NCBI GenBank assembly: GCA_963663995.1
Contig: OY760660.1
Span: forward strand, 1,080,001 to 1,112,000
DNA: 32,000 nucleotides
Origin: Erysipelotrichaceae bacterium
GTDB taxonomy: Bacteria > Bacillota_I > Bacilli_A > Erysipelotrichales > Erysipelotrichaceae
Direction of reading: 5' to 3'
This document shows, piece after piece, positions 11,842-31,839 of the stretch (position 1 is the first letter of the stretch; the number at the start of each line of letters is the position of its first letter). The notes beneath the pieces are model-generated. The model was not told where the DNA came from, ran no database searches, and saw nothing but the letters and a program-made list of their open reading frames with translations. The position numbers and the translations under genes are program-made.

Positions 11842-11844
11842 AGC

Positions 11845-13558: not shown

Positions 13559-13563
13559 GCCTA

Positions 13564-14397: not shown

Positions 14398-14423
14398 AAA
14401 TTTAAAAAACTTTCATTTTTCAC

Positions 14424-14454: not shown

Positions 14455-14505
14455 GAAGTTTGTCAGATAAAAGTTCTGAAATTTTTTAAAAATTAAGGAG
14501 AAAAA

Positions 14506-15345
14506 ATGAAAACTATTACATTATCAAATGGAATCAAAATGCCTATGTCAGGTATTGGTGTATTTAGATTAACACTACCTGAAACTGAAAACTCAGTTGA
14601 GTCTGCACTTAAAAATGGTGTAAGGCTTATTGATACAGCCAATGGCTATATGAATGAAAGTGCCACTGGTCGTGGTATTAAAAGAAGCGGTATTAATCGC
14701 GAAGAAATCTTTCTTGTCACAAAACTATGGCCAACTGTTTATGAAAAAGATACAGCCATTGAAGAAACACTAAAAAGATTAGATACAGATTATATTGATC
14801 TACTCTTCTTACACCAACCAACGAGTAACTGGAAAGCAGGTTACAGAGCAATTGAAAAAGCTTATAAAGAAGGTAAAGTAAAAGCGATTGGTCTTTCAAA
14901 CTTCTCAGAAGAAAAATTAAAAGAAGCGATTGAATTTGCTGAAATCAAACCACATATGGTTCAAGTTGAAGCACATCCTTATTATCCTCAAGATGAATTA
15001 AAGAAATTATTAGCCGAAAACAATATGGGGTTAATGGCTTGGTTCCCACTTGGTCATGGTGATAAAGCACTGATCGAAGAACCCATTTTCACTAAATTAG
15101 CTGAAAAATATGGCAAAACAAATGCTCAAGTTATCCTTAGATGGCACATTGAATCTGGTAATGTTATAATTCCAGGATCAAAGAACCCTGATCATATTAA
15201 AGATAACAACAACATCTTCGACTTCGATTTAACTAATGAAGAAATGGCAGAAATTGCAGCTATCAACAAAGGTATTCGTTACTATAACGCTACACCTGAA
15301 CTTGTTGAATCATATGCAAGCATGCAATTAAAAGAAGATATCTAA
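14506..15345 (+). CDS. Aldo/keto reductase (short 2,5-diketo-D-gluconate/YvgN-like type)
   Basis: 279 aa. IDTANGY, LKRLDTDYIDLLFLHQP, EAHPY and IIPGSKNPDHIKDN motifs. Confidence 0.9.
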   Translation: MKTITLSNGIKMPMSGIGVFRLTLPETENSVESALKNGVRLIDTANGYMNESATGRGIKRSGINREEIFLVTKLWPTVYEKDTAIEETLKRLDTDYIDLLFLHQPTSNWKAGYRAIEKAYKEGKVKAIGLSNFSEEKLKEAIEFAEIKPHMVQVEAHPYYPQDELKKLLAENNMGLMAWFPLGHGDKALIEEPIFTKLAEKYGKTNAQVILRWHIESGNVIIPGSKNPDHIKDNNNIFDFDLTNEEMAEIAAINKGIRYYNATPELVESYASMQLKEDI

Positions 15346-15358
15346 GAATAGTTTAGTA

Positions 15359-15395
15359 AACATGTTAACGGCTTTTGTTAGCATGTTTTCTTTTA
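15359..15395 (+). terminator. Rho-independent terminator
   Basis: AACATGTTAAC-ggctttt-GTTAGCATGTT (one mismatch) followed by TTCTTTT. Confidence 0.6.
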
Positions 15396-15444
15396 AAAAC
15401 GAAATTAAAAGAGTAAATAAACATACTCTTTCGAAAGGAGCCAA

Positions 15445-16443
15445 GTGAAAAATACAGTAAGGTGGTCTGTATCTTTACTTATATTAATAACAATGATAAG
15501 TGCATGCAGCAAACAAGAATCAGAAAATATAACTAGCACACAAAACAATGAGAGTTTAAATATTCTTCCTCAGACTGGATTAACCGTAAGTGTACCTACA
15601 GAATATTTAAGAGAAGCCAATGAACAAGGAACAATTGTGCAAATTGATTATGCATCAAAGGATTATGTGAGTGACCTTTCTGATATCACTAAGACAGCTT
15701 TTGTTTATCTACCCTATGGTTATCAAGAAAATGATACAGAGACAAAATATAACATCATTTATTTAATGCATGGTTGGAGTGGCCATGCGGGTGAGTATTT
15801 TGAATTCTTAAGTACAAAAAACATGTTTGATCAACTCATTGAAAGAGGTGAACTTGAACCATCCATCATTGTGTCCGCAAGTTTTTATACAGAAAATAGT
15901 AGTCGAGATTTTGGTGGATCTGTAGCAGAACTCAGAGTATTCCATAACGATTTTGTGAATCATTTAATGCCAGCAGTTGAAGGTCAATTCAATACCTATG
16001 CTACTTCTACTTCAAAAGAAGATTTAATGACTTCAAGAGATCATCGTGCCTTTGGAGGATTTTCATTAGGTTCAGTGACAACATGGATGGAGTTTGCTTA
16101 TGATTATGACTATATACGTTATTTTCTACCAATGAGTGGTTCTAGCTGGTACTTTGGTGGATATGGTGATTATTATCCTGAAGAAACCAGTGACTTCTTT
16201 GAACAACTTATTACTGAGAACGATTTAAACAATAGAGGTTATTTCATTTATGTAGCGACCGGTACAAGAGATTCAGTTCGTGATCAAGTTGATATTCAAA
16301 TGGATGAAATGTTAGCTAGAAATGATTTCTTTACACCTGATCATGTCGTTTATTATATGAAAGATGGTGGCCAACATGATTTCGTTGCTGTTCAAGAATA
16401 TTTATATAACGCACTACCCCTCTTCTTTAAATTAGAAGAATAA
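15445..16443 (+). CDS. Secreted esterase-family lipoprotein (alpha/beta hydrolase, putative-esterase type)
   Basis: GTG start after AAAGGAG. Lipobox ITMISAC, then YLMHGWSGH and a GFSLG nucleophile elbow. Confidence 0.75.
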   Translation: MKNTVRWSVSLLILITMISACSKQESENITSTQNNESLNILPQTGLTVSVPTEYLREANEQGTIVQIDYASKDYVSDLSDITKTAFVYLPYGYQENDTETKYNIIYLMHGWSGHAGEYFEFLSTKNMFDQLIERGELEPSIIVSASFYTENSSRDFGGSVAELRVFHNDFVNHLMPAVEGQFNTYATSTSKEDLMTSRDHRAFGGFSLGSVTTWMEFAYDYDYIRYFLPMSGSSWYFGGYGDYYPEETSDFFEQLITENDLNNRGYFIYVATGTRDSVRDQVDIQMDEMLARNDFFTPDHVVYYMKDGGQHDFVAVQEYLYNALPLFFKLEE

Positions 16444-16543
16444 CTATTTCATAACTCTCGAAAAACAATAAGTCGATAAGATCCATCCAAAATAGACAAT
16501 ATAAATATTAAAGTCGAAAGGAGGGATTTTTACATGCACACTT

Positions 16544-16762
16544 TTGGGTACTTTTTTCAAACATTTATATCAATTCACAAACCCTGTTTGTTTTATACAT
16601 GGAATTGAAGATAGTGTTGTAAGTTATACAGCTGCAAAAAACTACCATTATATATATAAGGATAGCGAACTTAATTTACTTAAGGGTCAATGCCACACAT
16701 TCAGTGCCAATCTTGATGAAGCAGTAGATATCGTAATTAAATTCATTTTAAAAAACAAATAG
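16544..16762 (+). pseudogene. C-terminal remnant of an alpha/beta hydrolase
   Basis: Only about 72 codons (…PVCFIHGIEDSVV…GQCHTF…), matching the His-loop end of the fold. A good RBS (AAAGGAGGG) and ATG at 16534 are in a different frame and stop after 24 codons. This suggests an internal deletion. Confidence 0.5.
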
Positions 16763-16781
16763 TTAATTTGACGTTAAATAA

Positions 16782-16809
16782 AACAGCACCTGAGACATCA
16801 AGTGCTGTT
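16782..16809. terminator. Bidirectional terminator between convergent genes
   Basis: AACAGCACCTGA-gaca-TCAAGTGCTGTT (12-bp stem, one mismatch), flanked by an A-run on the left and a T-run on the right. Confidence 0.7.
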
Positions 16810-16838
16810 TTGTTAGTTACCTATTATTAAATGTTTAT

Positions 16839-17696
16839 TTATCTTTGCTTAGAACAATCTATTCTCATTAGTTTAATGATGAACCCGAAGATGAAATCTG
16901 GAATATTAAAGAAAGGCTTATTCTTATCCAATGATCTAATTACTCTCATTTCTTCTGGATTTAATTCAAAATCATAGAGTTCTATATTTTCTTTAATATG
17001 TAGAGGGTTCAAAGATTTAGGAATAATGATATGTCCTTCTTGAAGATGCCATTTCAATATAATTTGAGCAGCTGATTTACCATATTTTTGAGCATACCCA
17101 GAAAAAACTTTTTCTTGTAATAGCCCTTTGTTCGCATGACCTAATGGATACCATGCTTCTAATTTTATATTATATTTTGAAAGTAATTGCTTAAGATCTT
17201 TTTGTTGATAATATGGATGACATTCAACTTGTGCTACTGCTGGTAATATTTTTGTTTGGCTAATTAAATCTTCAGTTCGTTCAACATTAAAATTACTTAT
17301 GCCAATGTTTTTAATAATACCTTTTTCAACATATGTTTCTAAAACTTTCCAAGCAGCCACATAGTCTCCGAATGGTTGATGAAGAAACAACAAATCTAAA
17401 TAATCAGTATCTAATCTTTTTAAAGTATCTTCAACCGCTTTAATGGTCTTATCACTTCCATAATCACTTGGCCAAATCTTAGATGTTAAGAAAATTTCTT
17501 CTCTTTTCAAGCCACTATTTTTCATTGTTTGACCAACAGCTACTTCATTTAAATATAAGTTAGCCGTATCAATTGAACGATAACCTTCATTAAAAGCCGT
17601 TTTCAACATCGAATCTATATTTTTGGATAAGACTTGATAAACACCAATACCAATTTGATCCATTTTATTATTATTGTTTAATTTAACTTGTTCCAT
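16839..17696 (-). CDS. Aldo/keto reductase (short type, paralog of 14506-15345)
   Basis: 285 aa. IDTANLY, LKRLDTDYLDLLFLHQP, ECHPY and IIPKSLNPLHIKEN motifs. Confidence 0.9.
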   Translation of the reverse strand: MEQVKLNNNNKMDQIGIGVYQVLSKNIDSMLKTAFNEGYRSIDTANLYLNEVAVGQTMKNSGLKREEIFLTSKIWPSDYGSDKTIKAVEDTLKRLDTDYLDLLFLHQPFGDYVAAWKVLETYVEKGIIKNIGISNFNVERTEDLISQTKILPAVAQVECHPYYQQKDLKQLLSKYNIKLEAWYPLGHANKGLLQEKVFSGYAQKYGKSAAQIILKWHLQEGHIIIPKSLNPLHIKENIELYDFELNPEEMRVIRSLDKNKPFFNIPDFIFGFIIKLMRIDCSKQR

Positions 17697-17704
17697 ACAC
17701 TTTC

Positions 17705-18673
17705 CTATCTAAATCCATATTGAGTGTGTGGAACATATGCTTCTTCTAAGTATTTTATTTCCTCAGCACTTAATTTAATATTCATTGCTTCTACGGCTTC
17801 ATCAATATATTTTGTTTTTGAAGCACCAATCAGAGGCGATGTAATATAAGATTTAGAAAGTAACCAGGCTAATGCGATTTGACTGGTCGATTTCCCATAT
17901 TTTTCTGCTAATTCATAAACTCGTTTGATGATGATCTTATCGTTTTCTAAAACATATTTATTTTGGAGTTTACCAATACCATCCACTCTTTCTGCTTCAG
18001 GGTCTTTATTGAATACACCGTGCGCTAAGGGTGAAAATGGAGTGATCGCAATTTTATTATATTGGCACATGGGTACCATTTCTTTTTCTTCTTCGCGATA
18101 TATCAAATTTATCACATCTTGCATCGAAACAAATTTAGCCCAACCATTTTTTTCGGCAATCGCATTTGCTTTTTCAAGTTGCCATGCATACATGGCTGAA
18201 GCACCAATATAACGAATCTTTCCTGCACGCACTAAATCATTGAGGGTTTCCATAACTTCTTCTATAGGAGTTGTATAATCCCAACGATGAATAATATAGA
18301 GATCAATGTAGTCTGTTTGTAAGCGTTCTAATGAATGCTGTAATTCGGTATATATCATCTTCCGATTCAAACCTTTAGCATTCGCATCATCTCTCATAGG
18401 GTAGTAAAGTTTGGTAGCTAAAACAACATTATCGCGATTGGCATACTTCTTGATCGCTTTACCTAAAATTTCCTCTCCTTCACCTAAAGCATAATAATTA
18501 GCTGTATCAAAAAAGTTTATTCCACACTCTAAAGCATATTTTATAATCTCAATTGCATCATCTTCGCTCACTTTACCAGCAATACCACCACGATTAGATG
18601 TGCCATAGCTCATCGTTCCTAAACACAATTTTGAAACTTTTAATCCCGTATTTCCTAAATTTACATAATCCAT
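17705..18673 (-). CDS. Aldo/keto reductase (long type, paralog of 10758-11759)
   Basis: 322 aa. LGNTGLKVSKLCLGTMSYG, FFDTANYY and DLYIIHRWD motifs. It ends 8 nt upstream of the next AKR. Confidence 0.9.
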   Translation of the reverse strand: MDYVNLGNTGLKVSKLCLGTMSYGTSNRGGIAGKVSEDDAIEIIKYALECGINFFDTANYYALGEGEEILGKAIKKYANRDNVVLATKLYYPMRDDANAKGLNRKMIYTELQHSLERLQTDYIDLYIIHRWDYTTPIEEVMETLNDLVRAGKIRYIGASAMYAWQLEKANAIAEKNGWAKFVSMQDVINLIYREEEKEMVPMCQYNKIAITPFSPLAHGVFNKDPEAERVDGIGKLQNKYVLENDKIIIKRVYELAEKYGKSTSQIALAWLLSKSYITSPLIGASKTKYIDEAVEAMNIKLSAEEIKYLEEAYVPHTQYGFR

Positions 18674-18693
18674 AAAATACCTCCTGCATTTTA

Positions 18694-18724
18694 ATCATAA
18701 ACCTTGGAGCAGACTCTAGGTCAA
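18694..18724 (-). promoter_or_regulatory. Promoter with 19-bp spacer and ACCT…AGGT imperfect dyad (MerR-family-like geometry)
   Basis: Minus strand reads TTGACC-TAGAGTCTGCTCCAAGGTT-TATGAT, 20 nt upstream of the AKR ATG region (RBS AGGAGG). Confidence 0.45.
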
Positions 18725-18740
18725 GAAATATAGGTTTTTA

Positions 18741-18771
18741 TTTAAAAAACCCATTTCTTGCAAAATGGGTT
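18741..18771 (-). terminator. Rho-independent terminator of the MarR-pirin operon
   Basis: Minus strand reads AACCCATTT-TGCAAG-AAATGGGTT followed by TTTTAAAT. Confidence 0.7.
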
Positions 18772-18794
18772 ACACAAAATGTAATAAAGAAATC

Positions 18795-19493
18795 TTAATT
18801 TTTCTTCATTTCAATCACGATAAAATGACTTGGTTCAATTGCTTTAATACTTAAATTTTCTTCAATCGTTTCAAGTGCATCACGTTTATCTAAAATAGTT
18901 TGATTAATATTAGACACGCCTTCAATTTGGATTAAATAAGCTTGTCTATTTTCTTCTACATTAAAATCAATGCTTTGATCCTTATCTAACTCCAAAACTG
19001 AGATATTAACATCTTGGTGAATTTTAATTGCACCATTTCCTTCAATATGACTAATAATTTTTAACCATTTATTATGTCTATCATCATAAGTAAATCTCAT
19101 ATCACCATATTGAGGCTTATATCCATTTTTATCCGGTAATATCCAAATCTGAAGGAAACGTGCTACGTTGCTTCCCCAGTTATGTTCGCTGTGCCAAACG
19201 CCTGTACCAGCACTCATGTATTGAACATCCCCACGAGCTATCGTATTTTCATTCCCCATATTATCACCATGTGATAATTCACCATTAACAACATATGAAA
19301 TAATTTCCATATCTCGATGGGGATGTAAATCAAATCCTGTTTGTGCATTCACTAAATCATCATTAATCACTCTGAGTACGCCAAAATTCATATTTTTTGG
19401 ATTATAGTAATCAGCAAATGAAAAATGAAACAAACTTCTTAACCAGCCTAAATTACTAGTTCCCATCTTTGTGTGATCAATTTTTCTAATCAT
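18795..19493 (-). CDS. Pirin family protein
   Basis: 232 aa. Cupin metal site HPHRDMEI…H…E and a bicupin length. Confidence 0.9.
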   Translation of the reverse strand: MIRKIDHTKMGTSNLGWLRSLFHFSFADYYNPKNMNFGVLRVINDDLVNAQTGFDLHPHRDMEIISYVVNGELSHGDNMGNENTIARGDVQYMSAGTGVWHSEHNWGSNVARFLQIWILPDKNGYKPQYGDMRFTYDDRHNKWLKIISHIEGNGAIKIHQDVNISVLELDKDQSIDFNVEENRQAYLIQIEGVSNINQTILDKRDALETIEENLSIKAIEPSHFIVIEMKKN

Positions 19494-19494
19494 T

Positions 19495-19935
19495 TTATTT
19501 TCCTTCTTTCAATTTTTCTTGAGCATGTATTCCAATTTTTTTATTATAGTTATGATATTGCTTATTCTCATCTTCACTAAATACTCTAAATATTTCTTGG
19601 ATGAATTGTTGATGCTCATTAAAGACAAATTGTATTTTTTCTAAACCCTCATTTGTTAAATGAGCATAGATTTTTCGCTTATCGTTTTCACATTTAAGAC
19701 GTATGACATAGTTTTTACTTTCCAATTGATCTATAACATAAGTTATTGACCCACTTGATAGTAATACTCTTTGCGCTATTGCTTGAATTGCAATATCTTT
19801 TTTCTGACTATACAAGAGTTCTAGTACCATGAATTCGCTTAAACTTAATCCGTACTGCGAAACATTTCTTTCAATCAGTGTCTCTATACTTCTCGAAGCT
19901 TTTAATAAGCTAATTAAACTTTTTAGTTGTCGCAT
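19495..19935 (-). CDS. MarR family transcriptional regulator
   Basis: 146 aa. wHTH with LSLSEFMVLELL…SGSITYVIDQLESKNYV. It ends 1 nt before the pirin start. Confidence 0.85.
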   Translation of the reverse strand: MRQLKSLISLLKASRSIETLIERNVSQYGLSLSEFMVLELLYSQKKDIAIQAIAQRVLLSSGSITYVIDQLESKNYVIRLKCENDKRKIYAHLTNEGLEKIQFVFNEHQQFIQEIFRVFSEDENKQYHNYNKKIGIHAQEKLKEGK

Positions 19936-21184: not shown

Positions 21185-22741
21185 ATGAGCATTTGTACAG
21201 TAGAAAATTTAACGCATGGTTTTGGTGATCGTGCGATATTTGAAGATGTTTCATTTAGATTATTAAAGGGTGAACATGTAGCATTAGTCGGAGCGAATGG
21301 TGAAGGTAAATCTACTTTCATGAGCATCCTTACAGATCACCTAGTTCCTGATGAGGGAGTGATTAAATGGGCATCCAAGGTTAGAGTTGGTTACTTAGAC
21401 CAACATTCAAGTTTGAAAAAAGGTTTAAGTATCAAAGAAATCCTTCAACAAGCTTTTTCCTATTTATTTGAAAACGAACAAGAAATTCTTTCACTCTATG
21501 AAGAAATGGCATCTAACCCCGATATCGATATGGATCTTGCTTTAGAAAAAATTGGAGTACTTCAAGATACTTTAGACCACCATGGATTTTATACCTTAGA
21601 TATTCGAATCGAAGAAGTTGCAAGTGCACTTGGTTTAACATCTATTGGATTAGAAAAAGATGTTGATGATTTGAGTGGTGGTCAAAGAAAAAAAGTATTA
21701 CTTGCTAAATTATTACTCGAAGAACCTGATATTTTATTACTTGACGAACCAACCAACTATTTAGATGAACCTCATATTGAATGGTTAAAGAAATATCTAC
21801 AAGAATATGAGAATGCCTTTATCTTAATTTCTCATGATATTGAATTCATGAATGATGTAGTTAATTTGATTTATCATGTTGAGAATTGTCATTTGACGCG
21901 ATATGTAGGTAACTATCATGAGTTTGAGCGTCTCTATGATCAAAATAAAAAAAATCTGGAGTCTGCCTTTAATCGACAACAAAAAGAAATCGCAAAACTT
22001 GAAGACTTTGTAGCACGTAATAAAGCACGTGTATCAACACGTAATATGGCTCATTCTCGTCAAAAGAAACTCGATAAAATGGATAAAATTGTTTTGAGCT
22101 CAGAAAAACCTAAACCTAGTTTTAACTTTAAGCCAGCTCGTAGTTCAAGTCGTGTGATTGTTAATGCGAGTGACTATGTTATTGGCTATGATAAACCTTT
22201 ATCTAAACCATTTAAATTTAGTTTAGAGAAAGGTCAAAAAATTGCCCTAATTGGATCTAATGGCTTAGGTAAAACAACATTACTTAAAAGTTTATTAGGG
22301 ATGATTGATCCTATTTCAGGTCACTTAGAAAAAGGTGAGTTTTTACATATAGGTTACTTTGAACAAGAATTGAAAGGATCACCTTCTACAACTTGTATTG
22401 AAGAAATATGGTCAACTTTCCCTAGTTATAGCCAAGTTCAAATAAGACATGCATTAGCTAAAGTTGGTTTAACAACTCAGCAATTAGAATCAAAAATTTC
22501 TGTTTTGTCTGGCGGTGAGCAAGCAAAAGTTAGATTATGTAAGATATTAAACACTGAATCTAATGTACTTGTATTAGATGAACCCACAAACCATTTAGAT
22601 CAAGATGCTAAAGATGAACTAAAGAGAGCCCTCATCGATTATAAGGGTGCTATCCTACTTGTTTCTCATGAACCTGACTTCTACGAAGATATTGTTAGTG
22701 ATATCGTAAATATTGAAGATTGGACAACTAAAATTTTCTAG
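21185..22741 (+). CDS. ABC-F family ATPase (two NBDs with linker, no TMD; YfmM-like from memory)
   Basis: 518 aa. Two Walker A sites (GANGEGKST, GSNGLGKTT), two signature motifs (LSGGQ, LSGGE), and a charged inter-domain linker (RQQKEIAKLEDFVARNKARVSTRNMAHSRQKKL). Confidence 0.9.
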   Translation: MSICTVENLTHGFGDRAIFEDVSFRLLKGEHVALVGANGEGKSTFMSILTDHLVPDEGVIKWASKVRVGYLDQHSSLKKGLSIKEILQQAFSYLFENEQEILSLYEEMASNPDIDMDLALEKIGVLQDTLDHHGFYTLDIRIEEVASALGLTSIGLEKDVDDLSGGQRKKVLLAKLLLEEPDILLLDEPTNYLDEPHIEWLKKYLQEYENAFILISHDIEFMNDVVNLIYHVENCHLTRYVGNYHEFERLYDQNKKNLESAFNRQQKEIAKLEDFVARNKARVSTRNMAHSRQKKLDKMDKIVLSSEKPKPSFNFKPARSSSRVIVNASDYVIGYDKPLSKPFKFSLEKGQKIALIGSNGLGKTTLLKSLLGMIDPISGHLEKGEFLHIGYFEQELKGSPSTTCIEEIWSTFPSYSQVQIRHALAKVGLTTQQLESKISVLSGGEQAKVRLCKILNTESNVLVLDEPTNHLDQDAKDELKRALIDYKGAILLVSHEPDFYEDIVSDIVNIEDWTTKIF

Positions 22742-22966: not shown

Positions 22967-23194
22967 TTACTTAACTGTTGTCTTTAATACATCAAACCCT
23001 AATTTGGTAATCACTTCATTGACTTGCTCAATTGATACATTGGAGTCTTCAAAGTCAAACTTTACCTTACTAGAATTAAATAGAACATTCACACTATTCT
23101 TATCCACACCAGCCATTGATTTAACGGCACTTTCAATCTTCATAGAACAAGATGGACAAACTAATGTATCTAACTGTAATACTGCTTTTTTCAT
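22967..23194 (-). CDS. Heavy-metal-associated (HMA) domain protein, metallochaperone-like
   Basis: 75 aa ferredoxin-like HMA fold with a CPSC metal motif (LVCPSCSMKIE). It overlaps the ATPase stop by 4 nt. Confidence 0.8.
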   Translation of the reverse strand: MKKAVLQLDTLVCPSCSMKIESAVKSMAGVDKNSVNVLFNSSKVKFDFEDSNVSIEQVNEVITKLGFDVLKTTVK

Positions 23195-25053
23195 ATAGCC
23201 TCCGATTTAATTTTAAATTTTAATAAACGCATTCCATTTAGAATGACAATTAAAATACTTCCTTCATGGACAAACATGCCAATTGACATGTTCATCCACT
23301 CACTAAAGAAAACACTTACTAATAAAAAGATGACAACTGCTATCGCAATAAATATGTTCTGTCTCATATTCATCGTGGTTTTTTTGCTTAATACATAAGC
23401 ATGAACTAAACTTTCAAATTTTGAGTTCATTAACACTACATCTGATGTTTCAATAGCTACATCTGTTCCACATCCCATCGCAATACCAATATTAGCTTGT
23501 GTAATGGATGGACTATCATTAATGCCATCACCAACAAACACAACGTGATGATTTTCTTTTTGCAGTTTCTTAACAAATTCCAGTTTATCTTGTGGCAGTA
23601 AATTCCCATAAGCTTCACTAAAATTTAGTTCTTTTGCGATAATATCAACCGTACTTTGATGATCTCCTGACAATAATATAAAACGTTTAATCCCCTGTTT
23701 TCTTAATCGTTCAATATTTTCCTTAACATTTTCTCGAAGTTGATCTTTCACACCAATAATACATTTTAAAGAATGATTAATGGACATCAAAGTTAGGGAT
23801 TGTCCACTATTTACGATTTGTCTGATCTCTTTCATCTGTTCATCATCGATAAGTACCCCTTCACTTTCCATTAATGAAAGATTACCTATGATGATCCGTT
23901 TATGATTGACTTCAGCTTTAATTCCTTGACCTTTAATCACTTCTGTTTTTTCGATTTTTACTATGGCAACCTTATCAAAATACTCAATGATTGCTTTTGC
24001 TAATGGATGCGTAGATTCATGTTCAACACTTACCAAGATAGATTCAATCTCTTTAGAGTCTTGATCAAAAATTTTGATGCTCGATACTTTTGGTCTTCCT
24101 TGAGTAAGTGTACCTGTCTTATCAAATACACAAACATCAGCCTGACTGAAACTTTGTATGATTTCACTTCCTTTGAATAAAACTGAGTGACTAGCACCAT
24201 TTCCTATTCCAGCGACATTTGACACAGGGACACCAATGACTAAAGCACCAGGGCACCCTAAGACTAAGATTGTGATTGACAACTCAATGTTTTGTGTAAA
24301 AAGATAAACAATAAACGCTAACAACAATACCACAGGTGTGTAATATTTAGAGAAGCGATCAATGAATCGTTCTGCTTGTGATTTAGAATCTTGTGCTTCT
24401 TCAACTAATTCAATAATCTTTCCAAAAGTTGTATCTTCACCCACACGTAGTGCTTGAACTTTAATCGTCCCGTTATCGACAATGGTTCCAGCAAAGACTT
24501 TCGAATCCTTTTCTTTAAATACCGTTTTTGATTCACCAGTAATACTGGCCTCATCGACATACGCCTCACCACTAAGAACTAATCCATCGACTGGTATCTT
24601 CGCGCCTGTTTTAACTAAGACGAGCTCATTCACATCTATCTCATCAATATCTACTTCTTTATAGCTTCCATCTTCATTTAACCTTAAAGCCGTTTCAGGA
24701 GCCAAATCAAGCAGTGTTTTAATCGCCATTCGCGTTTTATTTAAAGTTCTTGCTTCTAAGTAAGCACCAAACAAAAATAGAAAACTGACGATAGCCGATT
24801 CTTCATAGGCTTGAATCATAAATGCACCAAGCACTGCAATCGAAACTAAGACATCAATACTAACTACCTTAACCTTTAATGATTGGTAAGCTTGTAAAAA
24901 GATGGGTAATGACGCAAAGATTGATGAGCAAATCAATAAGACTTCAAAGACACCATAATTACCAAGTGCTAGCCTATTAAAAAAGCCAATAAGAATGAAG
25001 GTACCACTGATAAATATAATGTGGTTTTTATGCTTAAAAATTAATTTTTGCAT
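23191..25053 (-). CDS. P1B-type heavy-metal-translocating ATPase (CadA-like, no N-terminal HMA domain, CPG transmembrane motif)
   Basis: 620 aa. TGES, DKTGTLT, GDGINDSP and HEGSILIVILNGMRLL motifs. The TM6 motif reads LGCPGAL instead of the usual CPC. Confidence 0.9.
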   Translation of the reverse strand: MQKLIFKHKNHIIFISGTFILIGFFNRLALGNYGVFEVLLICSSIFASLPIFLQAYQSLKVKVVSIDVLVSIAVLGAFMIQAYEESAIVSFLFLFGAYLEARTLNKTRMAIKTLLDLAPETALRLNEDGSYKEVDIDEIDVNELVLVKTGAKIPVDGLVLSGEAYVDEASITGESKTVFKEKDSKVFAGTIVDNGTIKVQALRVGEDTTFGKIIELVEEAQDSKSQAERFIDRFSKYYTPVVLLLAFIVYLFTQNIELSITILVLGCPGALVIGVPVSNVAGIGNGASHSVLFKGSEIIQSFSQADVCVFDKTGTLTQGRPKVSSIKIFDQDSKEIESILVSVEHESTHPLAKAIIEYFDKVAIVKIEKTEVIKGQGIKAEVNHKRIIIGNLSLMESEGVLIDDEQMKEIRQIVNSGQSLTLMSINHSLKCIIGVKDQLRENVKENIERLRKQGIKRFILLSGDHQSTVDIIAKELNFSEAYGNLLPQDKLEFVKKLQKENHHVVFVGDGINDSPSITQANIGIAMGCGTDVAIETSDVVLMNSKFESLVHAYVLSKKTTMNMRQNIFIAIAVVIFLLVSVFFSEWMNMSIGMFVHEGSILIVILNGMRLLKFKIKSEAI

Positions 25054-25058
25054 AAGTC

Positions 25059-25355
25059 TTATAGATTACTATAACTATCGGATAATTCTTTAAGCATCAC
25101 AAAGACAGCTTCATATGTTTCACAGACATCACTAGGCACCTTATATGAATTAGTAATTGAATTTAAACGATCAAATTCTTCTCTTAAATCTGACTCGTTA
25201 TTTTTATATTTATCAACCAATTTATTGTATTCAACACGTACATCAAAAAATTCGGGATGATGTCCACCATGAACTCGCTCTACTACCGGAACATATTGTT
25301 GAAGCTTAGGAAAGAATCTTTCAAAAGTTTGATTAAATGCTTTTTTTTCACTCAT
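25059..25355 (-). CDS. Small helical protein of unknown function with VHGGHHPE motif (hemerythrin/RIC-like segment, tentative)
   Basis: 98 aa. RBS AAGAGG. It is the first gene behind the FNR-box promoter and ends 5 nt before the ATPase start. The motif resemblance is from memory only. Confidence 0.5.
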   Translation of the reverse strand: MSEKKAFNQTFERFFPKLQQYVPVVERVHGGHHPEFFDVRVEYNKLVDKYKNNESDLREEFDRLNSITNSYKVPSDVCETYEAVFVMLKELSDSYSNL

Positions 25356-25386
25356 ATCGATTTACCTCTTTTATTTATCTATAAGA

Positions 25387-25429
25387 AGTATATTTTTTCT
25401 GTATGATTTATTCCTTGACGTACATCAAG
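25387..25429 (-). promoter_or_regulatory. FNR-box promoter (class II geometry)
   Basis: The plus strand reads CTTGACGTACATCAAG at 25414-25429; the core TTGAC-GTAC-ATCAA is 25415-25428, 9/10 to TTGAT-N4-ATCAA. The box centre at 25421.5 lies 29.5 nt upstream of the first base of the -10 TATACT (25392-25387). That places it at about -41.5. Confidence 0.6.
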
Positions 25430-25433
25430 TATT

Positions 25434-25458
25434 TAAAAAAAGACCAGTAATTTGGTCT
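25434..25458 (-). terminator. Rho-independent terminator after the crp/fnr gene
   Basis: Minus strand reads AGACCA-AATTAC-TGGTCT followed by TTTTTTT, starting at the stop codon. Confidence 0.7.
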
Positions 25459-26159
25459 TATATCATCAGCAATTCATCAATATTCAATAATTCTATTTCT
25501 TGATTTGTTATTTGTTTAATCAAACCTGATTCTTCAAATTCAAATAGTTTTCGACTAATCGTTTCTGGACTTGTCCCAAGATAAGAAGCTAAATCTTTTT
25601 TACTCATACCTAAATGAATTATTTTTGTTGATTCTTCATTCTCGATACTTTCGACTAAATATAAAGCTAAACGAGTTTCTACTTTTTGTGTCGCAAAGCG
25701 TGTGCTTTGTTCTTCAGACTTAGATAATCGTTTTGATAATTCTGACATGATTTTCAATGATATTTGTGGATAAGTGTTCAGCAAACTCTGTAGTTCCTCT
25801 CGTTTAATCATACAGATACTTGTATTCATCATTGCACTCGCAAATGCATCATGAATAGAATCATTAAATAATGAAAGTTCGCCTGTAAAGTCGCCCGGAT
25901 TCAATAATCGAATAAGTTGACTTTTCCCATCTTCAGTTATTCGATCAATTCTTACACGCCCTCTAGAAATGACATATAATGCATCAGATTTTGTGTTTGG
26001 TTCATAAATCATTTCACCTTTTTTAAATGTTGTCGTTACTATAAGTTTCTGAATTTCATCCATCTGATCTTGAGTTAAATGATTAAAGATAGGAACTGTA
26101 CTTACACAGCCCTTATCATTTTGCATACAACATTCATGACCCAAACATTTATCTGTCAT
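25458..26159 (-). CDS. Crp/Fnr family regulator with N-terminal Cys cluster (FNR type)
   Basis: 233 aa. Cys5, Cys10, Cys11, Cys18 plus an internal Cys (NTSICMIK), a cNMP-binding-like beta-roll, and a C-terminal HTH (KDLASYLGTSPETISRKL). Confidence 0.88.
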   Translation of the reverse strand: MTDKCLGHECCMQNDKGCVSTVPIFNHLTQDQMDEIQKLIVTTTFKKGEMIYEPNTKSDALYVISRGRVRIDRITEDGKSQLIRLLNPGDFTGELSLFNDSIHDAFASAMMNTSICMIKREELQSLLNTYPQISLKIMSELSKRLSKSEEQSTRFATQKVETRLALYLVESIENEESTKIIHLGMSKKDLASYLGTSPETISRKLFEFEESGLIKQITNQEIELLNIDELLMI

Positions 26160-26486
26160 TAATATATCTCCTTATTTAAACTTTACAACTTATCTATTTA
26201 TCAGCATATTGTATCAAAATTCACACATGTTGGTCTCACTTACACTTTATCGTTTTTTACTATCAAATAATTTATCATTTTAACGTATTCTCAATTTATT
26301 TCGTTATCGAAATTAAAAGATTTTTCCAAATTTATTCAAACAAGAAAAACTCAATAAGGGGGCATTAATATATACATTATACACACGACAAAAATTAACC
26401 TAATTTAACATCTCTTTAAAGATTTTTTCATTCACAACAAAAAGTCGCAGATATTAATTAGAACTTATATTATTTCATCTCTTCAT

Positions 26487-27646: not shown

Positions 27647-27789
27647 AGTCATAGGATTTCATAAGTTCTGCTTCTAATTTCACTATATGCTTATTTCGTT
27701 CAAAAAGATAGTTTGAATGATATTTTATATTTTTCTAATTTTTACAAATTATTAGCGAAACCAATATTATCAAAATAACTCTAATCAAG

Positions 27790-27810
27790 AAAAAAACCCA
27801 TACAATGGGC
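27790..27810 (-). terminator. Private terminator of junction element A
   Basis: Minus strand reads AAAGCCCA-TTGTA-TGGGTTTT with a run of 7 T. It begins 12 nt after the CCA of the tRNA-like core. Confidence 0.6.
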
Positions 27811-27811
27811 T

Positions 27812-27906
27812 TTAATTCACACATGGTGCGCGTGACAGGAATCGCATTACATTCCCAAATCTTCCCGTATCTTACCATATTAAAACTAGGACGGACTAGG
27901 GGGGGG
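27812..27906 (-). repeat. Junction element copy A (short form, 3 decamer units)
   Basis: The minus strand reads in this order: C8 run, CTAGTCCGTCCTAGTT, 3 units of about 10 nt, then AATGTAATG, then CGATTCCTGTCACGCGCACCA (plus 27824-27844), then trailer TGTGTGAATTAA. The 24 nt acatggtgcgcgtgacaggaatcg are identical in all three copies. Confidence 0.85.
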
Positions 27907-28108
27907 TGATTGTTATATTAAGATAGTTACTTAGCTGTTAATTGTATACGACTACTTATGTTTTTTAGTTGACATGACAATGTATTTAATACAAATCATC
28001 ACTTATAATTTTCCTCTGAACTAAAATCACTTTTTTCAATTAACTGATCTAAAGAATTATTTTTTTATAGATAACTTCCTTGCCTACTTTTGTTTCACTT
28101 ACCAAACA

Positions 28109-29173
28109 CTAATTGTTTTTTACTAGATCAAATAATCTCTTATTCTGGTATATTCGCTCTTTACCAATTTTCTCAGATATCAAAAAGCCATTTTCTTCCA
28201 ATTGTTTTAAATAGCTAACTGCTGTTTTCCTAGTTACATTCAATCCCTTTTCGACAAAGATTGTTTTTGTATAAAATTCTTTGAACAATATTTCAATAAG
28301 TTCTTTACTATAAATATTTGGCAACTCTTCCTTAATCTGATCTCTCATTAAAATCACTTCATTATTTATAAGCTTTGTTAGTTCAAGTGTTTCTTTTGAT
28401 ATTTCTTCTATTCCTTTAAGTATAAATACAATCCACCCTTCCCAGTTCTTATTTTCTCTAACATCTTGTAATAAATGATAGTATGCTGCTTTATTTCTAA
28501 TGATAAAACGACTTAAATATAAAATAGGACTATCTAGCAAACCTTTTAGAATTAAAAACAAAACATTTATAATTCTTCCAGTTCTTCCATTTCCATCATA
28601 AAAGGGATGTATACTTTCAAACTGATAATGTATAACAGCTAATTTAATCAAATCATCTATTTCATCATCAATATTTATATATTTTTCTAGATTATTAAGA
28701 TATTCTCTTATTACATCTTCACCAACTGGTGGAGTATAGACTATCTCACCTGTTTTATCATTTTTAAGAACAGTACCTGGAACTTTCCGAATTCCAGCAC
28801 TGTTTTTTTCAATAATCTCTTGAATTTGAACAATCATATTAGTCGATAAAATATTATTTTTAGATACTAGCTCAAATCCTTTCCATAACGCAGCTCTATA
28901 ATTCTCCACTTCTTTACTAGCTGGATTATTAGAAGATTGCGAACTCATTTCTCGATATAAGTCATCATGAGTTGTAATAATATTTTCAATTTCAGAACTG
29001 TCTTTTGATTCATTTATTATGATTGCATTTATTAAAATATTCTTATTTGGTATTGTTTCTGAATAGCCTTTTAGTTCAGATAAATATTTATGAGCAGAAA
29101 CTAATTGCTTCAATATTTTTTTAGTTTCAAGGTCTATATTGGGAGGCAACATAGGTAAATTTTGTTCAAACAT
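28109..29173 (-). CDS. Fic family protein (class II, N-terminal inhibitory helix, C-terminal wHTH)
   Basis: 354 aa. Fic motif HPFYDGNGRTGR, inhibitory motif SSEIEN ((S/T)xxxE(G/N)), a Fic_N-like start (LPPNIDLETKKILKQLVSAHKYLSELKG), and a C-terminal VTRKTAVSYLKQLEENGFLI. Confidence 0.92.
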   Translation of the reverse strand: MFEQNLPMLPPNIDLETKKILKQLVSAHKYLSELKGYSETIPNKNILINAIIINESKDSSEIENIITTHDDLYREMSSQSSNNPASKEVENYRAALWKGFELVSKNNILSTNMIVQIQEIIEKNSAGIRKVPGTVLKNDKTGEIVYTPPVGEDVIREYLNNLEKYINIDDEIDDLIKLAVIHYQFESIHPFYDGNGRTGRIINVLFLILKGLLDSPILYLSRFIIRNKAAYYHLLQDVRENKNWEGWIVFILKGIEEISKETLELTKLINNEVILMRDQIKEELPNIYSKELIEILFKEFYTKTIFVEKGLNVTRKTAVSYLKQLEENGFLISEKIGKERIYQNKRLFDLVKNN

Positions 29174-29190
29174 GACATATAACTCCTTTA

Positions 29191-29222
29191 CATAGGTATT
29201 ATAACACCATTAATTACCTATG
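29191..29222 (-). promoter_or_regulatory. Extended -10 promoter of fic embraced by an 8-bp inverted repeat
   Basis: Minus strand reads CATAGGTA-attaatgg-TGTTATAAT-ACCTATG. The extended -10 TGtTATAAT is at 29206-29198 and the arms CATAGGTA/TACCTATG are at 29191-29198 and 29215-29222. Confidence 0.5.
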
Positions 29223-29332
29223 TTCTTGTGATATGGGTAATATTTTTATTTTTTTACCTATATAAATACACTATAAATAAATTATAAACTCTATCCAGTG
29301 ATTAGAGTAATCCCACATTATCCCCCTACAAG

Positions 29333-29353
29333 AAAAAAGCCCAAAGAATGGGC
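29333..29353 (-). terminator. Private terminator of junction element B
   Basis: Minus strand reads GCCCA-TTCTT-TGGGC followed by TTTTTT. Confidence 0.65.
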
Positions 29354-29354
29354 A

Positions 29355-29487
29355 TTAATTCATACATGGTGCGCGTGACAGGAATCGCATTACATTCTCA
29401 AAACTTAACAAACACTACCGTTTCATACCATTTCTTCCCAAATCTTCACGCATCATCCCATATTAAAACTAGGGTCGGACTAGGGGG
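29355..29487 (-). repeat. Junction element copy B (long form, 7 decamer units)
   Basis: Same architecture as A and C. The tRNA-like core is at plus 29367-29387, the decamer array at 29397-29466 and ACTAGGGtcggACTAGGG at 29468-29485. My hand alignment gives 13 mismatches to copy C over the 124 aligned nt from ACATGG to the G-run. Confidence 0.85.
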
Positions 29488-29601
29488 ATGAAATTTTACT
29501 TCTTTAATTCTTAAGTGGGTATTACATATTTTATATATGAAAAAAATCTATGCCTATGGCAGCAATACCCACTCATGTTTTCCGTCGCATTACAAATAGT
29601 C

Positions 29602-30120
29602 TCATTGCAATATGTAATCAATAATAATTAAATCTTCATAAACCAAAATCAGATAAATCCTATCACTAGGCATATCCTTTACGGATTGTTCCGCATTTAT
29701 CGTAAAATATCTATAACAATTACATTTTAAGTCAAATGGAAGTAAATCTACTTTCGAGACATCGTTAATAGAGTATTCTTTAATAAAGTGAAGGTTTTGA
29801 GCAATACCGTCTATCACTTCCTGCTCTTCAATGATTTCATCATTCTCTAGATCATTAATAAATTTATAGAAATCACTTTCTTTATTGATTTTTAGAACCA
29901 TGAAACTTTCATAAATCTTTCCTTCAAAAGACACCACAGTATATTGATCAGTTTCTAAATAAGGGAGAAGTTCAGCATATCTAAAGTAATCAGAGGGTTG
30001 ATCTATTTCTGGATCAAGTGGATCATCTAGTATAACGGATACAACTAAAATTAGGATTATAGCGAGAAATAGCGCTGTCAAGAACATAAAGATGTACTCA
30101 AAATATTTAGATATTTTCAT
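29602..30120 (-). CDS. Membrane-anchored hypothetical protein
   Basis: 172 aa. One N-terminal TM helix (IFMFLTALFLAIILILVVSVIL) followed by an acidic extracytoplasmic domain. I recognise no motif. Confidence 0.6.
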   Translation of the reverse strand: MKISKYFEYIFMFLTALFLAIILILVVSVILDDPLDPEIDQPSDYFRYAELLPYLETDQYTVVSFEGKIYESFMVLKINKESDFYKFINDLENDEIIEEQEVIDGIAQNLHFIKEYSINDVSKVDLLPFDLKCNCYRYFTINAEQSVKDMPSDRIYLILVYEDLIIIDYILQ

Positions 30121-30207
30121 CGTAGCAGGAATCTCCTAATATAAATCAACTAATTAGTAGACAAGTTTAATTGCTTTAAATGGAACTAAACAATAATAGT
30201 ACAGATC

Positions 30208-31395
30208 CTATAATTTAAAATTCAATAAAAATTCTTCTATATTAATATGTTTAATTCCATTATATGAAAAATCCACGGAATCCATTGATAGAACTAATTT
30301 AGGATATGAGTCATTGATAGAATTTAGAACACTAAATTCTCTTTCTCTGGTCGTTTCTGAACCAAGTAAATAGGATACTTGTATATATAACTTCTCATCA
30401 TTTTTAGTGGCAATAAAATCAATTTCCTGTTGATTTAACTTCCCGATATTTATAGTGTACCCTCTTCTCACAAGTTCAATGTAGACAATATTTTCTAAGA
30501 TTAATTCAATGGCTGCTTCATTATTCCCTACAACAGCTTCTCTAAAACCGTGGTCAGCAATAAAGTATTTTTCTTCTGTTTTTAATAATGCTTTCCCATT
30601 GATGTCATATCTTGAAGCTTTATATAATATAAAACCCTTTTCTAGGATATCAATATAATGAAGTATTGTATCAACACTAATTTTTATGTTTTGTGATTTT
30701 AGATATTTTGAAATGGACAGAGCTGAAAAAGTTTTAGATGTATTCGCACATAGATAAATGATAAGTTTTTCAAGTGTTGCTGAATTTCTAATATCATAAC
30801 GTTGGATAACATCTTGAAGAATAGCTGATTGAAAACTGTCTCTAAGTACAGTCATTGATAAATCATAATTTAAGTCAAAAACGGTTATCGAAGGTAGTCC
30901 ACCGAAAGTTATATAGTCATTAAATGTAGCTTGTTTATGATAGTTTTTAAATTCTTTATAAGAAAAAGGGTGTACTAAAATCTCTACATATCTTCCAGCT
31001 AAATAAGTAGATAAGTCTGAAGACATTAAATCTGAATTTGATCCCGTAATATAGATATCAAATTTATTCATCGCATGGAAAGCATTGACGGCTTTTTCCC
31101 AATCTTTTATCCTACCTACTTCATCAAGAAATAGATATAATTGTCCACTGCACTTTTTATCCCATTCTAAAACATTGTTAGTTAAATCTTTATAGTCCTT
31201 AATGTCGAAGTTCTCAGGAAGTTCAAAATTTAACTTAAGAACATTTATTTCTCTTGTAGCATTTTTTATTAAATCTGCAATATACATGTCCAAAAGAACT
31301 GATTTTCCAGAACGTCTTAATCCAGTGATTACTTTTACAAATGGCTTGTCTTTAAAATCACCTAGCTTTTGAATGTATTCTATTCGCTCAATCAT
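30208..31395 (-). CDS. AAA-type ATPase with DUF4143-like C-terminal region (COG1373 type)
   Basis: 395 aa. Walker A GLRRSGKS and Walker B LYLFLDEV. The C-terminal EIDFI…KLYIQV segment resembles a PD-(D/E)xK-like core, as recalled for this family. Confidence 0.85.
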   Translation of the reverse strand: MIERIEYIQKLGDFKDKPFVKVITGLRRSGKSVLLDMYIADLIKNATREINVLKLNFELPENFDIKDYKDLTNNVLEWDKKCSGQLYLFLDEVGRIKDWEKAVNAFHAMNKFDIYITGSNSDLMSSDLSTYLAGRYVEILVHPFSYKEFKNYHKQATFNDYITFGGLPSITVFDLNYDLSMTVLRDSFQSAILQDVIQRYDIRNSATLEKLIIYLCANTSKTFSALSISKYLKSQNIKISVDTILHYIDILEKGFILYKASRYDINGKALLKTEEKYFIADHGFREAVVGNNEAAIELILENIVYIELVRRGYTINIGKLNQQEIDFIATKNDEKLYIQVSYLLGSETTREREFSVLNSINDSYPKLVLSMDSVDFSYNGIKHINIEEFLLNFKL

Positions 31396-31544
31396 AATAT
31401 CTACCTCTATTTCGATTATATTCTAAATAATATCATATTTCAAATATTATTTCGATTATAATCTAAATTAATATTTATTGATAAAACAAAATAGCCAGTC
31501 TATTTCATGAATTTCTTAATGATTCATATTTATGTATTAAGACT

Positions 31545-31572
31545 AAAACAAAAGAACATCTTTTAGATGTCC
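31545..31572 (-). terminator. Private terminator of junction element C
   Basis: Minus strand reads GGACATC-TAAAA-GATGTTC followed by TTTTGTTTT. Confidence 0.65.
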
Positions 31573-31705
31573 TTAATTGATACATGGTGCGCGTGACAGG
31601 AATCGTATTACATTGCCAAAACTTCCCAAACACTACCATTTCATGCCATTTCGTCCCAAATCTTCCCGTATCTTCCCATATTAAAACTAGGGGCAGACTA
31701 GGGGG
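31573..31705 (-). repeat. Junction element copy C (long form, 7 decamer units)
   Basis: The tRNA-like core is at plus 31585-31605, the decamer array at 31615-31684 and ACTAGGGgcagACTAGGG at 31686-31703, followed by a G-run. Confidence 0.85.
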
Positions 31706-31839
31706 ATTAAAATTTAAAGTGTGTTGTTTATTTATCATTGATACTATCGTTAAGATATTTTTGTAAAAGTAAACAAAAGTATTCATACTACAATAATATG
31801 TATTCATATTCCCCTTCTCACTACATTTTTCAATAGAAA

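Follow-up and report, generated by a model that had tools for sequence, protein, structure and literature searches.

How does a row of small gene units come to be separated by fragments of a transfer RNA (tRNA) gene, with no recombinase encoded among them? The question is raised by about 4 kb near the end of a 32,000-nucleotide (nt) stretch of an Erysipelotrichaceae bacterium (GenBank assembly GCA_963663995.1, contig OY760660.1, positions 1,080,001 to 1,112,000 of the forward strand), which we refer to as the window. An earlier reading of this DNA, made from its letters alone (hereafter the sequence-only reading), had described three paralogous junction elements there, each with a string laid out like a tRNA 3' end, and had proposed that they separate cassettes accreted one after another and mobilised in trans. 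We found that the string is the 3' end of tRNA-Leu(TAG), that this tRNA gene heads arrays of the same junctions in related genomes, and that whole cassettes vary between genomes with breakpoints at the edges of the tRNA-derived core. The units are probably mini-islands resembling cis-mobilizable elements (CIMEs) that accreted by site-specific recombination at a tRNA-derived attachment (att) core, and an unlinked recombinase acting in trans probably moves them.

Junction elements and the tRNA gene they derive from

The 21-mer CGATTCCTGTCACGCGCACCA was found exactly three times in the window, each time on the minus strand, and matched in none of 100 shuffles (0 expected). Copies A, B and C (Table 1) could be aligned end to end and, in minus-strand orientation, have one layout: a C-run, a pair of CCCTAG repeats spaced 11 nt from each other, AGTTTTAAT, a series of 10-bp units resembling ATGGGAAGAT, AATR and the 21-mer, followed by the trailer TGTRTSAATTAA and then by a hairpin with a T-run. 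The trailers of the individual copies read TGTATCAATTAA in C, TGTATGAATTAA in B and TGTGTGAATTAA in A. We call the part upstream of the tRNA-derived core the arm. Copies B and C each have seven of the 10-bp units and copy A has three, an exact four-unit deletion relative to B and C and to the orthologous full arm in L021 (L-numbered entries are contigs of related genomes). The lag-10 autocorrelation of the window arms was 0.44-0.62, against 0.25-0.31 ± 0.05 in shuffled sequences. The count, the full-length alignment and the autocorrelation together bear out the single strict architecture that the sequence-only reading had described.

A consensus scan placed a terminator-like hairpin immediately 3' of every core in the window. 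The hairpin had been said to differ in every copy, which stands for copy C, whereas the hairpins of A and B are mutually related (GCCCATTGTATGGG, GCCCATTCTTTGGGC). The type-b hairpin of junction C also lies 5' of the orthologues of the ATPase cassette, both in OY781039.1, a complete 1.96-Mb chromosome (at its junction j4), and in L014/L015. The trailer of junction B resembles the terminator behind the intact tRNA-Leu of OY781039.1 and L021, with 87% identity over 55 nt between the junction and the tRNA-Leu plus trailer of OY781039.1.

Because ARAGORN found 0 tRNA genes in the window and Rfam at its gathering threshold found no family anywhere in it, none of the three copies is a full tRNA, as had been claimed. 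Nor does any copy have the cloverleaf of a tRNA: identity to tRNA-Leu sets in no earlier than CGAT/TCCTG, within the T loop and the T stem.

We then scanned one genome per species, 185,579 species in all, for the 21-mer. No more than five stretches contained it, and each came from a member of the Erysipelotrichaceae or from related Bacilli. Four of the five are the exact 3' end of a tRNA-Leu(TAG); their sources are OY781039.1, a Bacilli metagenome-assembled genome (MAG), Thomasclavelia spiroformis and a further MAG of the Erysipelotrichaceae. The fifth belongs to a junction element of OY781039.1, 7.3 kb downstream of its tRNA-Leu. Because four matches end a tRNA-Leu(TAG) and the fifth sits in the adjoining array, the tRNA-like reading of the 21-mer is correct and not coincidental. 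The exact core occurs twice in the complete OY781039.1, at the tRNA and in its adjoining array only, so the genome-wide scatter that the sequence-only reading had associated with a generic intergenic repeat was not seen.

Every junction contains the 21-bp common core TCCTGTCACGCGCACCATGTA, in which TGTA follows the terminal 17 nt of the tRNA. At internal junctions the core has no role in a tRNA, yet a comparison of 22 of them gave just 16 mismatches among 462 positions (96.5% identity); the similarity among type-1 arms is only about 60-90%. More than 20 junctions, drawn from at least six genomes, have this compact layout.

At least three arm families precede this one core. Type 1, that of the window arms, is built of GGGAAG-type units (seven or three); AAAGC/AAGCAA-type units make up type 2 and its variant 2'; and type 3 lacks lag-10 periodicity. 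In every family a C-rich box, lying about 105-115 nt upstream of the core, opens the arm. Type 2 has no sequence relationship to type 1 (lag-10 autocorrelation 0.53-0.62), yet its lag-10 autocorrelation is also raised (0.51-0.53, against 0.33 ± 0.04 in shuffles). Beyond the terminator, the junctions fold no better than shuffled sequence (z = -0.74 for RNA in the sense orientation and +0.38 for DNA of the other strand). Given no strand-specific fold, any action of the arms would be as double-stranded DNA, and the phased arms are probably either arm-type binding sites or static or phased bends that assist a recombination complex.

Two other interpretations of the repeats were considered and set aside. 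An attC-like or RNA-structure reading is unsupported by the folding of either strand. A reading as the primer-binding site of a long-terminal-repeat retroelement calls for the complement of a tRNA 3' end, and the repeats stand in the same sense as the tRNA that heads the arrays.

Table 1. Junctions, cassette genes and distal flank of the array, in window coordinates
Feature	Coordinates	Strand	Evidence
Junction C	31546..31707	minus	profile search (nhmmer E 7e-53); alignment; terminator scan
Junction C: C-run and two CCCTAG repeats	31705-31686	minus	
Junction C: seven 10-bp units	31679-31610	minus	
21-mer, copy C	31585-31605	minus	
Junction C: common core TCCTG..TGTA	31601-31581	minus	
Junction C: type-b terminator hairpin, before its T-run	31574-31552	minus	
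Cassette 1 cargo, whole	29602..31395	minus	Pfam, PADLOC
Cassette 1: AAA_14/DUF4143 ATPase	30208-31395	minus	Pfam; PADLOC PDC-S01 (candidate defence family), E 1e-139
Cassette 1: membrane protein, 172 amino acids (aa)	29602-30120	minus	
Junction B	29329..29490	minus	nhmmer, alignment, terminator scan
Junction B: C-run	starts 29487	minus	
Junction B: seven 10-bp units	29461-29392	minus	
21-mer, copy B	29367-29387	minus	
Junction B: common core	29383-29363	minus	
Junction B: type-c terminator, before its T-run	29353-29339	minus	
Cassette 2: Fic/SoFic-type protein, 354 aa	28109..29173	minus	Pfam; PADLOC SoFic, E 8e-114
Junction A	27786..27906	minus	nhmmer, alignment, terminator scan
Junction A: C-run, then CCCTAG-type repeats	C-run 27906-27899	minus	
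Junction A: three 10-bp units	27878-27849	minus	
21-mer, copy A	27824-27844	minus	
Junction A: common core	27840-27820	minus	
Junction A: terminator, before its T-run	27813-27793	minus	
Cassette 3: baeRF-family protein, 373 aa	26487..27608	minus	Pfam
ABC-F ATPase gene, conserved distal chromosomal flank	21185..22741	plus	Pfam; 79.3% nt identity over 1615 nt to L014 13774-15387

Cassettes and their arrays in related genomes

The genes between the window junctions all lie on the minus strand (Pfam, PADLOC) and match the gene content given by the sequence-only reading: an ATPase with a membrane protein, then a Fic protein, and a baeRF gene after copy A. No recombinase domain was found among the window open reading frames (ORFs) scanned, all of at least about 140 aa. 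The intergenic spaces measure only 110-220 nt, which leaves no room for integrase remnants.

The promoter region of cassette 1 holds two 20-nt direct repeats on the minus strand, TTTAGATTATAATCGAAATA at 31467-31448 and TTTAGAATATAATCGAAATA at 31427-31408. They lie 40 bp apart, both contain a TATAAT box, and they look like duplicated promoters or an operator pair. On the far side of the baeRF gene, a candidate decayed fourth junction at 26341-26400 (minus; TTTTGTCGTGTGTATAATGTATATATTAATGCCCCCTTATTGAG followed by a T-run) resembles the core plus a type-c trailer. Its differences from the core are mostly C-to-T (TTTTGTCGTGTGTATAATGTAT...), and it may be the distal junction of the baeRF unit; the resemblance is not significant (nhmmer E 0.36 and 0.11) and is partly a by-eye reading.

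To compare arrays, we combined an element profile (nhmmer) with a fuzzy search for the core and oriented each map by the tRNA. An intact tRNA-Leu(TAG) with this 3' end heads a junction array in OY781039.1, in the 110-kb contig L014 and in L021-L023, which represent three samples. In these loci the repeat equals the 3' end of the tRNA at the head of the island, the arrangement expected of an attR site, and no such tRNA lies within about 16 kb upstream of the window array. In OY781039.1 a TrxB-like gene, META and tRNA-Leu are followed by AbiEi and AbiEii up to j1. An HTH-TPR gene, a DUF2599 protein and a small membrane protein fill the interval from j1 to j2, a duplicate of this set the interval to j3, and RelB with ParE the interval to j4; the DUF4143 ATPase and the 172-aa membrane protein then extend to j5, and a 314-aa Fic protein separates j5 from a MetH-like core gene. 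L014 begins likewise with TrxB-like, META and tRNA-Leu, and continues with a Schlafen-AlbA2 ATPase plus a 156-aa product, a junction, the DUF2599 set, a junction, the ATPase with its membrane protein, a junction, about 220 nt empty of genes, a junction, RelB and ParE, and a last junction directly abutted by ABC-F, with PHP beyond.

The other arrays are shorter. In L021-L023 the tRNA-Leu is followed by the 354-aa Fic gene, a junction, and a UbiE-type methyltransferase with META. L016 and L017 have genes without assigned identity, a junction, the ATPase with its membrane protein, a junction, and the same UbiE-META flank; an IS256-like transposase lies upstream. In L019 and L020 a junction, the baeRF gene and a rhamnose operon follow one another. 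No integrase, excisionase or transposase lies within any of the arrays (the OY781039.1, L014, L016, L019 and L021 loci), so this part of the sequence-only reading holds for the relatives as well as for the window. The small ORFs of the arrays had no Pfam match, and hence no hidden recombinase or excisionase was detected among them.

Several features of these contigs deserve mention in their own right. The empty interval of L014 (12046-12300) lies between an arm 2 with core and type-c trailer and a short arm 1 with core, and looks like a cassette with lost cargo or a junction-to-junction scar. In two genomes a Schlafen/AlbA_2 plus HATPase_c_4 gene lies directly downstream of tRNA-Leu(TAG) (L004 5598-7172 and L014 5846-7195), and in L004 no recognisable junction follows it; this position may be a defence-gene hotspot beyond the junction-bearing clade. 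The left end of L008 (1-1000), where the first ~900 nt have 40% GC against 28% elsewhere, carries a fragment of an AAA_25/RepA-like ATPase with a C-terminal HTH fused to a truncated copy of the 314-aa Fic gene; it is either a chimera assembled at low coverage or foreign DNA inserted into the cassette, and was not relied on.

The cassettes of the window recur in these genomes in other company. The ATPase cassette (window 31601-29602) is 95.8% identical to its counterpart in L014, with homology starting at the T of TCCTG. Against OY781039.1 identity is 84.6% over window 31628-29362 and homology ends 5 nt past the CCA of junction B; against L016 it is 87.6%. The neighbours of the cassette differ in all three. 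The Fic cassette (window 29383-27852) is 94.9% identical to that of L021 and its breakpoint again falls at the T of TCCTG: on its left side the core adjoins the ATPase-cassette arm in the window and the body of the intact tRNA-Leu(TAG) in L021. The baeRF unit (window 27846-26485) is 95.7% identical to that of L019, where an unrelated type-3 arm, with core and trailer the same, stands before it and the rhamnose operon behind it. The breakpoints of the three window cassettes thus lie at core edges (left 31601, 29383 and ~27846; right 29362). The RelB/ParE and ATPase cassettes stand in reverse order in OY781039.1 and L014. The comparison of strains suggested by the sequence-only reading therefore showed cassette content and order varying among relatives, with breakpoints at the core.

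The terminators travel with the cassettes. Directly behind the tRNA the terminator is of type c in OY781039.1 and L021 and of type b in L014; type c also occurs internally, at L014 12025 and at window junctions A and B, and internal examples of type b are those at window junction C and at j4 of OY781039.1. Such sharing between tRNA and internal junctions is expected if an incoming unit replaces the tRNA 3' end together with its terminator, and it agrees with the earlier suggestion that an island rebuilding a tRNA gene would need an element-borne terminator.

The ABC-F flank of the window is syntenic with the tRNA-anchored array of L014. Because the ATPase cassette is 95.8% identical between the two and the ABC-F flank only 79.3%, nucleotide divergence indicates that the cassette moved horizontally, and recently, relative to the chromosome.

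Origin of the array and its surroundings

We propose that the 4 kb in the window would be the tRNA-distal part of a tandem, integrase-less cassette array, belonging to a tRNA-Leu(TAG) integration hotspot of a small Erysipelotrichaceae clade. A cassette would run from core to core. Behind the first core would come a trailer and an intrinsic terminator belonging to the cassette, then its promoter region and one to three genes of defence, toxin-antitoxin or accessory type; an arm of roughly 100 nt, opening with the C-rich box and carrying 10-bp-phased repeats, would lead to the next core. A circular cassette would recombine through its core with the core of the tRNA gene or of any resident junction. 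Insertion would rebuild the tRNA 3' end and bring in a new terminator, and arm plus core would remain as a junction on the distal side of the inserted cassette. Repeated insertion, excision and reinsertion would yield arrays that differ in content and order among genomes. Because none is encoded in the array, the recombinase would have to be supplied in trans, by an unlinked gene of the host or by a visiting element. Of the serial accretion mobilised in trans that the sequence-only reading had proposed, accretion at a tRNA-derived att core is thus supported, and mobilisation in trans is what we infer by elimination.

A more far-reaching version is that the array is a dedicated and still active cassette platform, an 'integron on a tRNA gene', in which an unlinked and possibly host-encoded recombinase shuffles defence and toxin cassettes of one to three genes. 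We put this forward tentatively, as a possibility well short of probable. The roughly 100-nt, interchangeable, 10-bp-phased arms would then be architectural, and each cassette would supply a replacement terminator for the tRNA; both suggestions are equally tentative.

Several observations weigh against the accretion of mobile cassettes by site-specific recombination. The tRNA that the sequence-only reading had expected just beyond position 32,000 is not there: although the ABC-F flank is syntenic with L014, the ~16 kb upstream of junction C (L001 and L013, same strain, in which ARAGORN found no tRNA) contain no tRNA-Leu, core or integrase, and the array of L016 likewise has no tRNA within 10 kb. 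The absence of a tRNA near the window array reflects either a large insert or a rearrangement of the locus, and we favour neither. Neither a circular form nor an empty site could be demonstrated. The array loci yielded no recombinase, complete genomes not having been searched for one, and the central enzyme of the proposal is hypothetical. The homology between window and L014 ends at the stop codon of the membrane protein, off the core, and arms are exchanged relative to cargo: the ATPase cassette has a type-1 arm in the window, OY781039.1 and L011, and a type-2 arm in L014, L016 and L010. The off-core breakpoints and swapped arms imply that homologous recombination also reshapes the arrays. 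In addition, the three type-1 arms of OY781039.1 are closest to each other and not to the orthologous arms elsewhere, which suggests homogenisation by gene conversion within that genome.

The 2.26-kb contig L015 consists of the ATPase cassette only and has a 29-nt terminal direct overlap (1-29 and 2231-2259) inside an arm of type 2. As evidence of a circle this overlap is uninformative, since assembly collapse of the two flanking arm-2 copies could also explain it.

The main rival takes up exactly these points. It holds that the array is a fossil reshaped by homologous recombination only: the junctions would be attR scars of successive integrase-bearing islands or prophages at tRNA-Leu, since stripped of integrases and of most genes, and present differences would come from deletion, natural transformation and RecA-dependent recombination between repeats of 25-170 bp, with no mobile cassettes at all. 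Partial tRNAs are a known by-product of repeated integration (bioRxiv 10.1101/2020.12.28.424599; PMC9897764; PMC5704250), and the off-core breakpoints, exchanged arms, homogenised look of the OY781039.1 arms and missing recombinase all fit. However, no remnants of integrase pseudogenes are present in the short intergenic spaces; a fossil fits poorly with one compact layout in so many junctions and genomes, internal cores so conserved beside diverged arms, or two arm families that retain 10-bp phasing and equal length; the cassettes occur as precise core-to-core units in new contexts; and one of them is at 96% identity between genomes where the flank is at 79%. We consider a fossil array unlikely, though it is the alternative to be taken most seriously.

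A second rival explains the missing enzyme differently. Core and trailer would form a dif-like site, and the chromosome-dimer resolvase of the host would move the modules by Xer recombination, in the manner of an integrative mobile element exploiting Xer (IMEX) or a pdif module. This would account for the absence of a dedicated recombinase, since pdif modules and IMEXs are recombinase-less modules with short conserved boundary sites, and ACCATGTA(G/T)AC loosely resembles, by eye, the XerD half of a Firmicute dif. The core, however, lacks the paired, inverted 11-bp arms and intervening 6-bp spacer of such a site (by hand count, self-complementarity extends to about 2 of 11 positions), its sequence is that of a tRNA 3' end, and a tRNA gene, not a terminus dif, anchors the array, so an Xer-type origin seems very improbable. 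A by-eye search of core plus trailer in 22 junctions likewise gave no inverted symmetry, the clade's own dif not having been compared.

A non-recombinational module, meaning either a dispersed intergenic repeat (like a miniature inverted-repeat transposable element, MITE, or a repetitive extragenic palindrome, REP) or a 3'-untranslated-region, terminator or small-RNA element resembling a tRNA end by chance, would suit the good intrinsic terminator that ends every junction right after co-oriented genes and the length of ~120-160 nt, as in many bacterial intergenic repeats, but is already largely refuted, and least likely of all, given no Rfam family, no stable folding except in the terminator, an exact 21-nt match to the tRNA-Leu at the head of the relatives' arrays, the confinement of the exact core to the tRNA-array locus of the complete OY781039.1, and no further copies in the 32-kb window or 16 kb upstream. 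The many copies at unrelated loci that mark MITEs and REPs were thus not seen, a result that covers the exact core, with diverged copies elsewhere possible.

Searches of mobile-element collections returned little. BLASTN of the element against phage and plasmid collections gave no match, IMG/VR had 0 matches for the 21-mer and 0 for the arm pattern, and the Joint Genome Institute (JGI) metagenomes had 0 for the arm pattern and two short contigs for a core+TGT pattern. A 17-mer match in IMG/VR (L012) lies inside a GC-rich phage gene and was dismissed as chance.

The remaining surroundings of the array are as follows. No extra element copies were present across 48 kb of the window's genome (the 32-kb window plus 16 kb upstream). 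Between the array and ABC-F, window 22967-26159 holds a Crp/cNMP-binding regulator, a 98-aa ORF, a P-type (E1-E2) ATPase and a 75-aa ORF (22967-23194) that overlaps the 3' end of the P-type ATPase gene; no junction was detectable between ABC-F and the baeRF unit, and this segment looks like a further insertion without a recognisable junction. Farther away, nadA-nadB-nadC with a NiaR-like (HTH_11 + 3H) regulator (5251-8764) and a dense cluster (9936-19935) in which aldo-keto reductases and short-chain dehydrogenases are accompanied by LysR and MarR regulators and a pirin have the appearance of ordinary housekeeping or accessory metabolism.

The upstream ~16 kb contain a gene for an enzyme of unassigned function, a phosphotransferase-system (PTS) bgl operon, an ISL3 transposase, a PASTA-domain lipoprotein and an AlwI-like restriction-modification system. 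The last, an island ~11 kb upstream, lies at L013 11485-17663, ~10-16 kb past window position 32,000, and includes an AlwI-like restriction enzyme, two Dam-type methyltransferases, a DNA-methylase fragment and a 197-aa serine recombinase of the resolvase/invertase type, the only recombinase seen. Two copies of a 230-aa ORF of unassigned function are found at L013 10001-10693 and 13366-14058, and the island may be a mobile or invertible module; no link between it and the tRNA-derived junctions was found. L001 and L013, metagenome sequence of the same strain, differ from the window by single-base indels (for example L001 9521-9530 and 9698-9702) and have split Fic, baeRF and window-end genes, and these differences look like long-read assembly errors, not biological differences.

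Comparison with known systems

Tandem accretion at tRNA genes and integrase-less CIMEs are both established (PMC5704250; bioRxiv 10.1101/2020.12.28.424599), so that the suggestion of a cassette system not yet described has to be narrowed: the window array is a new variant, not a new principle, although its regularity is unusual and its layout integron-like. In tRNA-linked islands, newcomers push older elements inward and leave partial tRNAs behind (bioRxiv 10.1101/2020.12.28.424599; PMC9897764). CIMEs, as presented in PMC5704250, keep attL and attR without integration or transfer genes and form tandem rows at the 3' end of the gene they target; according to the same source, which summarises Pavlovic 2004 and Bellanger 2011, those of ICESt1/ICESt3 kin in Streptococcus thermophilus have common arm sequences, and the integrase of a related element is presumed to move them. 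The window cassettes resemble CIMEs in being bounded by core, arm and trailer and in lacking integrase and transfer genes. They differ in that up to five or six very small units of one to three genes stand in a row, with tRNA-Leu(TAG) as the target, a 10-bp-phased arm and a terminator of its own for each unit, and mostly defence and toxin-antitoxin cargo. In addition, no cognate integrative and conjugative or integrative and mobilizable element is in sight, and derivation from a decayed one is not evident; an element with these arms plus an integrase was found in none of IMG/VR, the JGI metagenomes and the phage and plasmid collections, whole clade genomes not having been scanned.

The tycheposons of Prochlorococcus (bioRxiv 10.1101/2020.12.28.424599) share the partial-tRNA flanks. 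They are defined by their own tyrosine recombinase, often together with replication genes, whereas our arrays have no recombinase in or near them, much smaller units and a conserved non-coding arm. No array contains the cognate integrase that characterises a tRNA-targeting element. The ssrA-specific islands of Dehalococcoides are reportedly 10-30 kb long, each with its own ssrA-specific serine recombinase; they are said to resemble the present arrays in lying in tandem at a tRNA-like gene, that for tmRNA, with direct repeats of the gene's 3' end. In pdif modules and IMEXs, recombinase-less modules lie between short conserved sites and the recombinase is encoded elsewhere. Here the site is a tRNA 3' end and not a dif-like inverted pair, and the arrays are chromosomal and tRNA-anchored.

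These arrays bear on how defence islands are assembled and reshuffled. They consist of single-system units (SoFic, the PDC-S01 ATPase, AbiE, RelB/ParE, a Schlafen-like ATPase and baeRF) with precise tRNA-derived boundaries, exchanged between species and reordered at one locus without a linked recombinase. At a hotspot that is active, or was so recently, repeats of tRNA fragments can accordingly show where one cassette ends and the next begins, and they are not a mere annotation nuisance. Finding the responsible enzyme would provide a simple, testable model of modular immune-gene exchange and a compact att-site toolkit made up of a 21-bp core and phased arms.

The closest functional parallel is the integron. 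Integrons supply a cassette mechanism mainly in Proteobacteria, and we know of no comparable cassette platform established for Firmicutes; if the arrays are indeed such a platform, they would represent an undescribed Firmicute way of building and shuffling defence islands. Sedentary chromosomal integrons carry cassette arrays rich in toxin-antitoxin genes, and both systems have ordered units of one or two genes between recombination sites, an order and content that vary by strain, and frequent toxin-antitoxin and defence cargo. Unlike integrons, the arrays have no intI, attI or Pc beside them, the head in OY781039.1 and L014 being formed by TrxB-like, META and tRNA-Leu; their site is tRNA-derived, their junctions have no attC-like single-strand hairpins, and their cassettes have their own promoters and terminators. 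Because its units are small and regular, no recombinase lies in the four arrays viewed in full, the arms are phased, the cassettes carry terminators and the cargo is defence and toxin genes, the arrangement works like an integron without being one.

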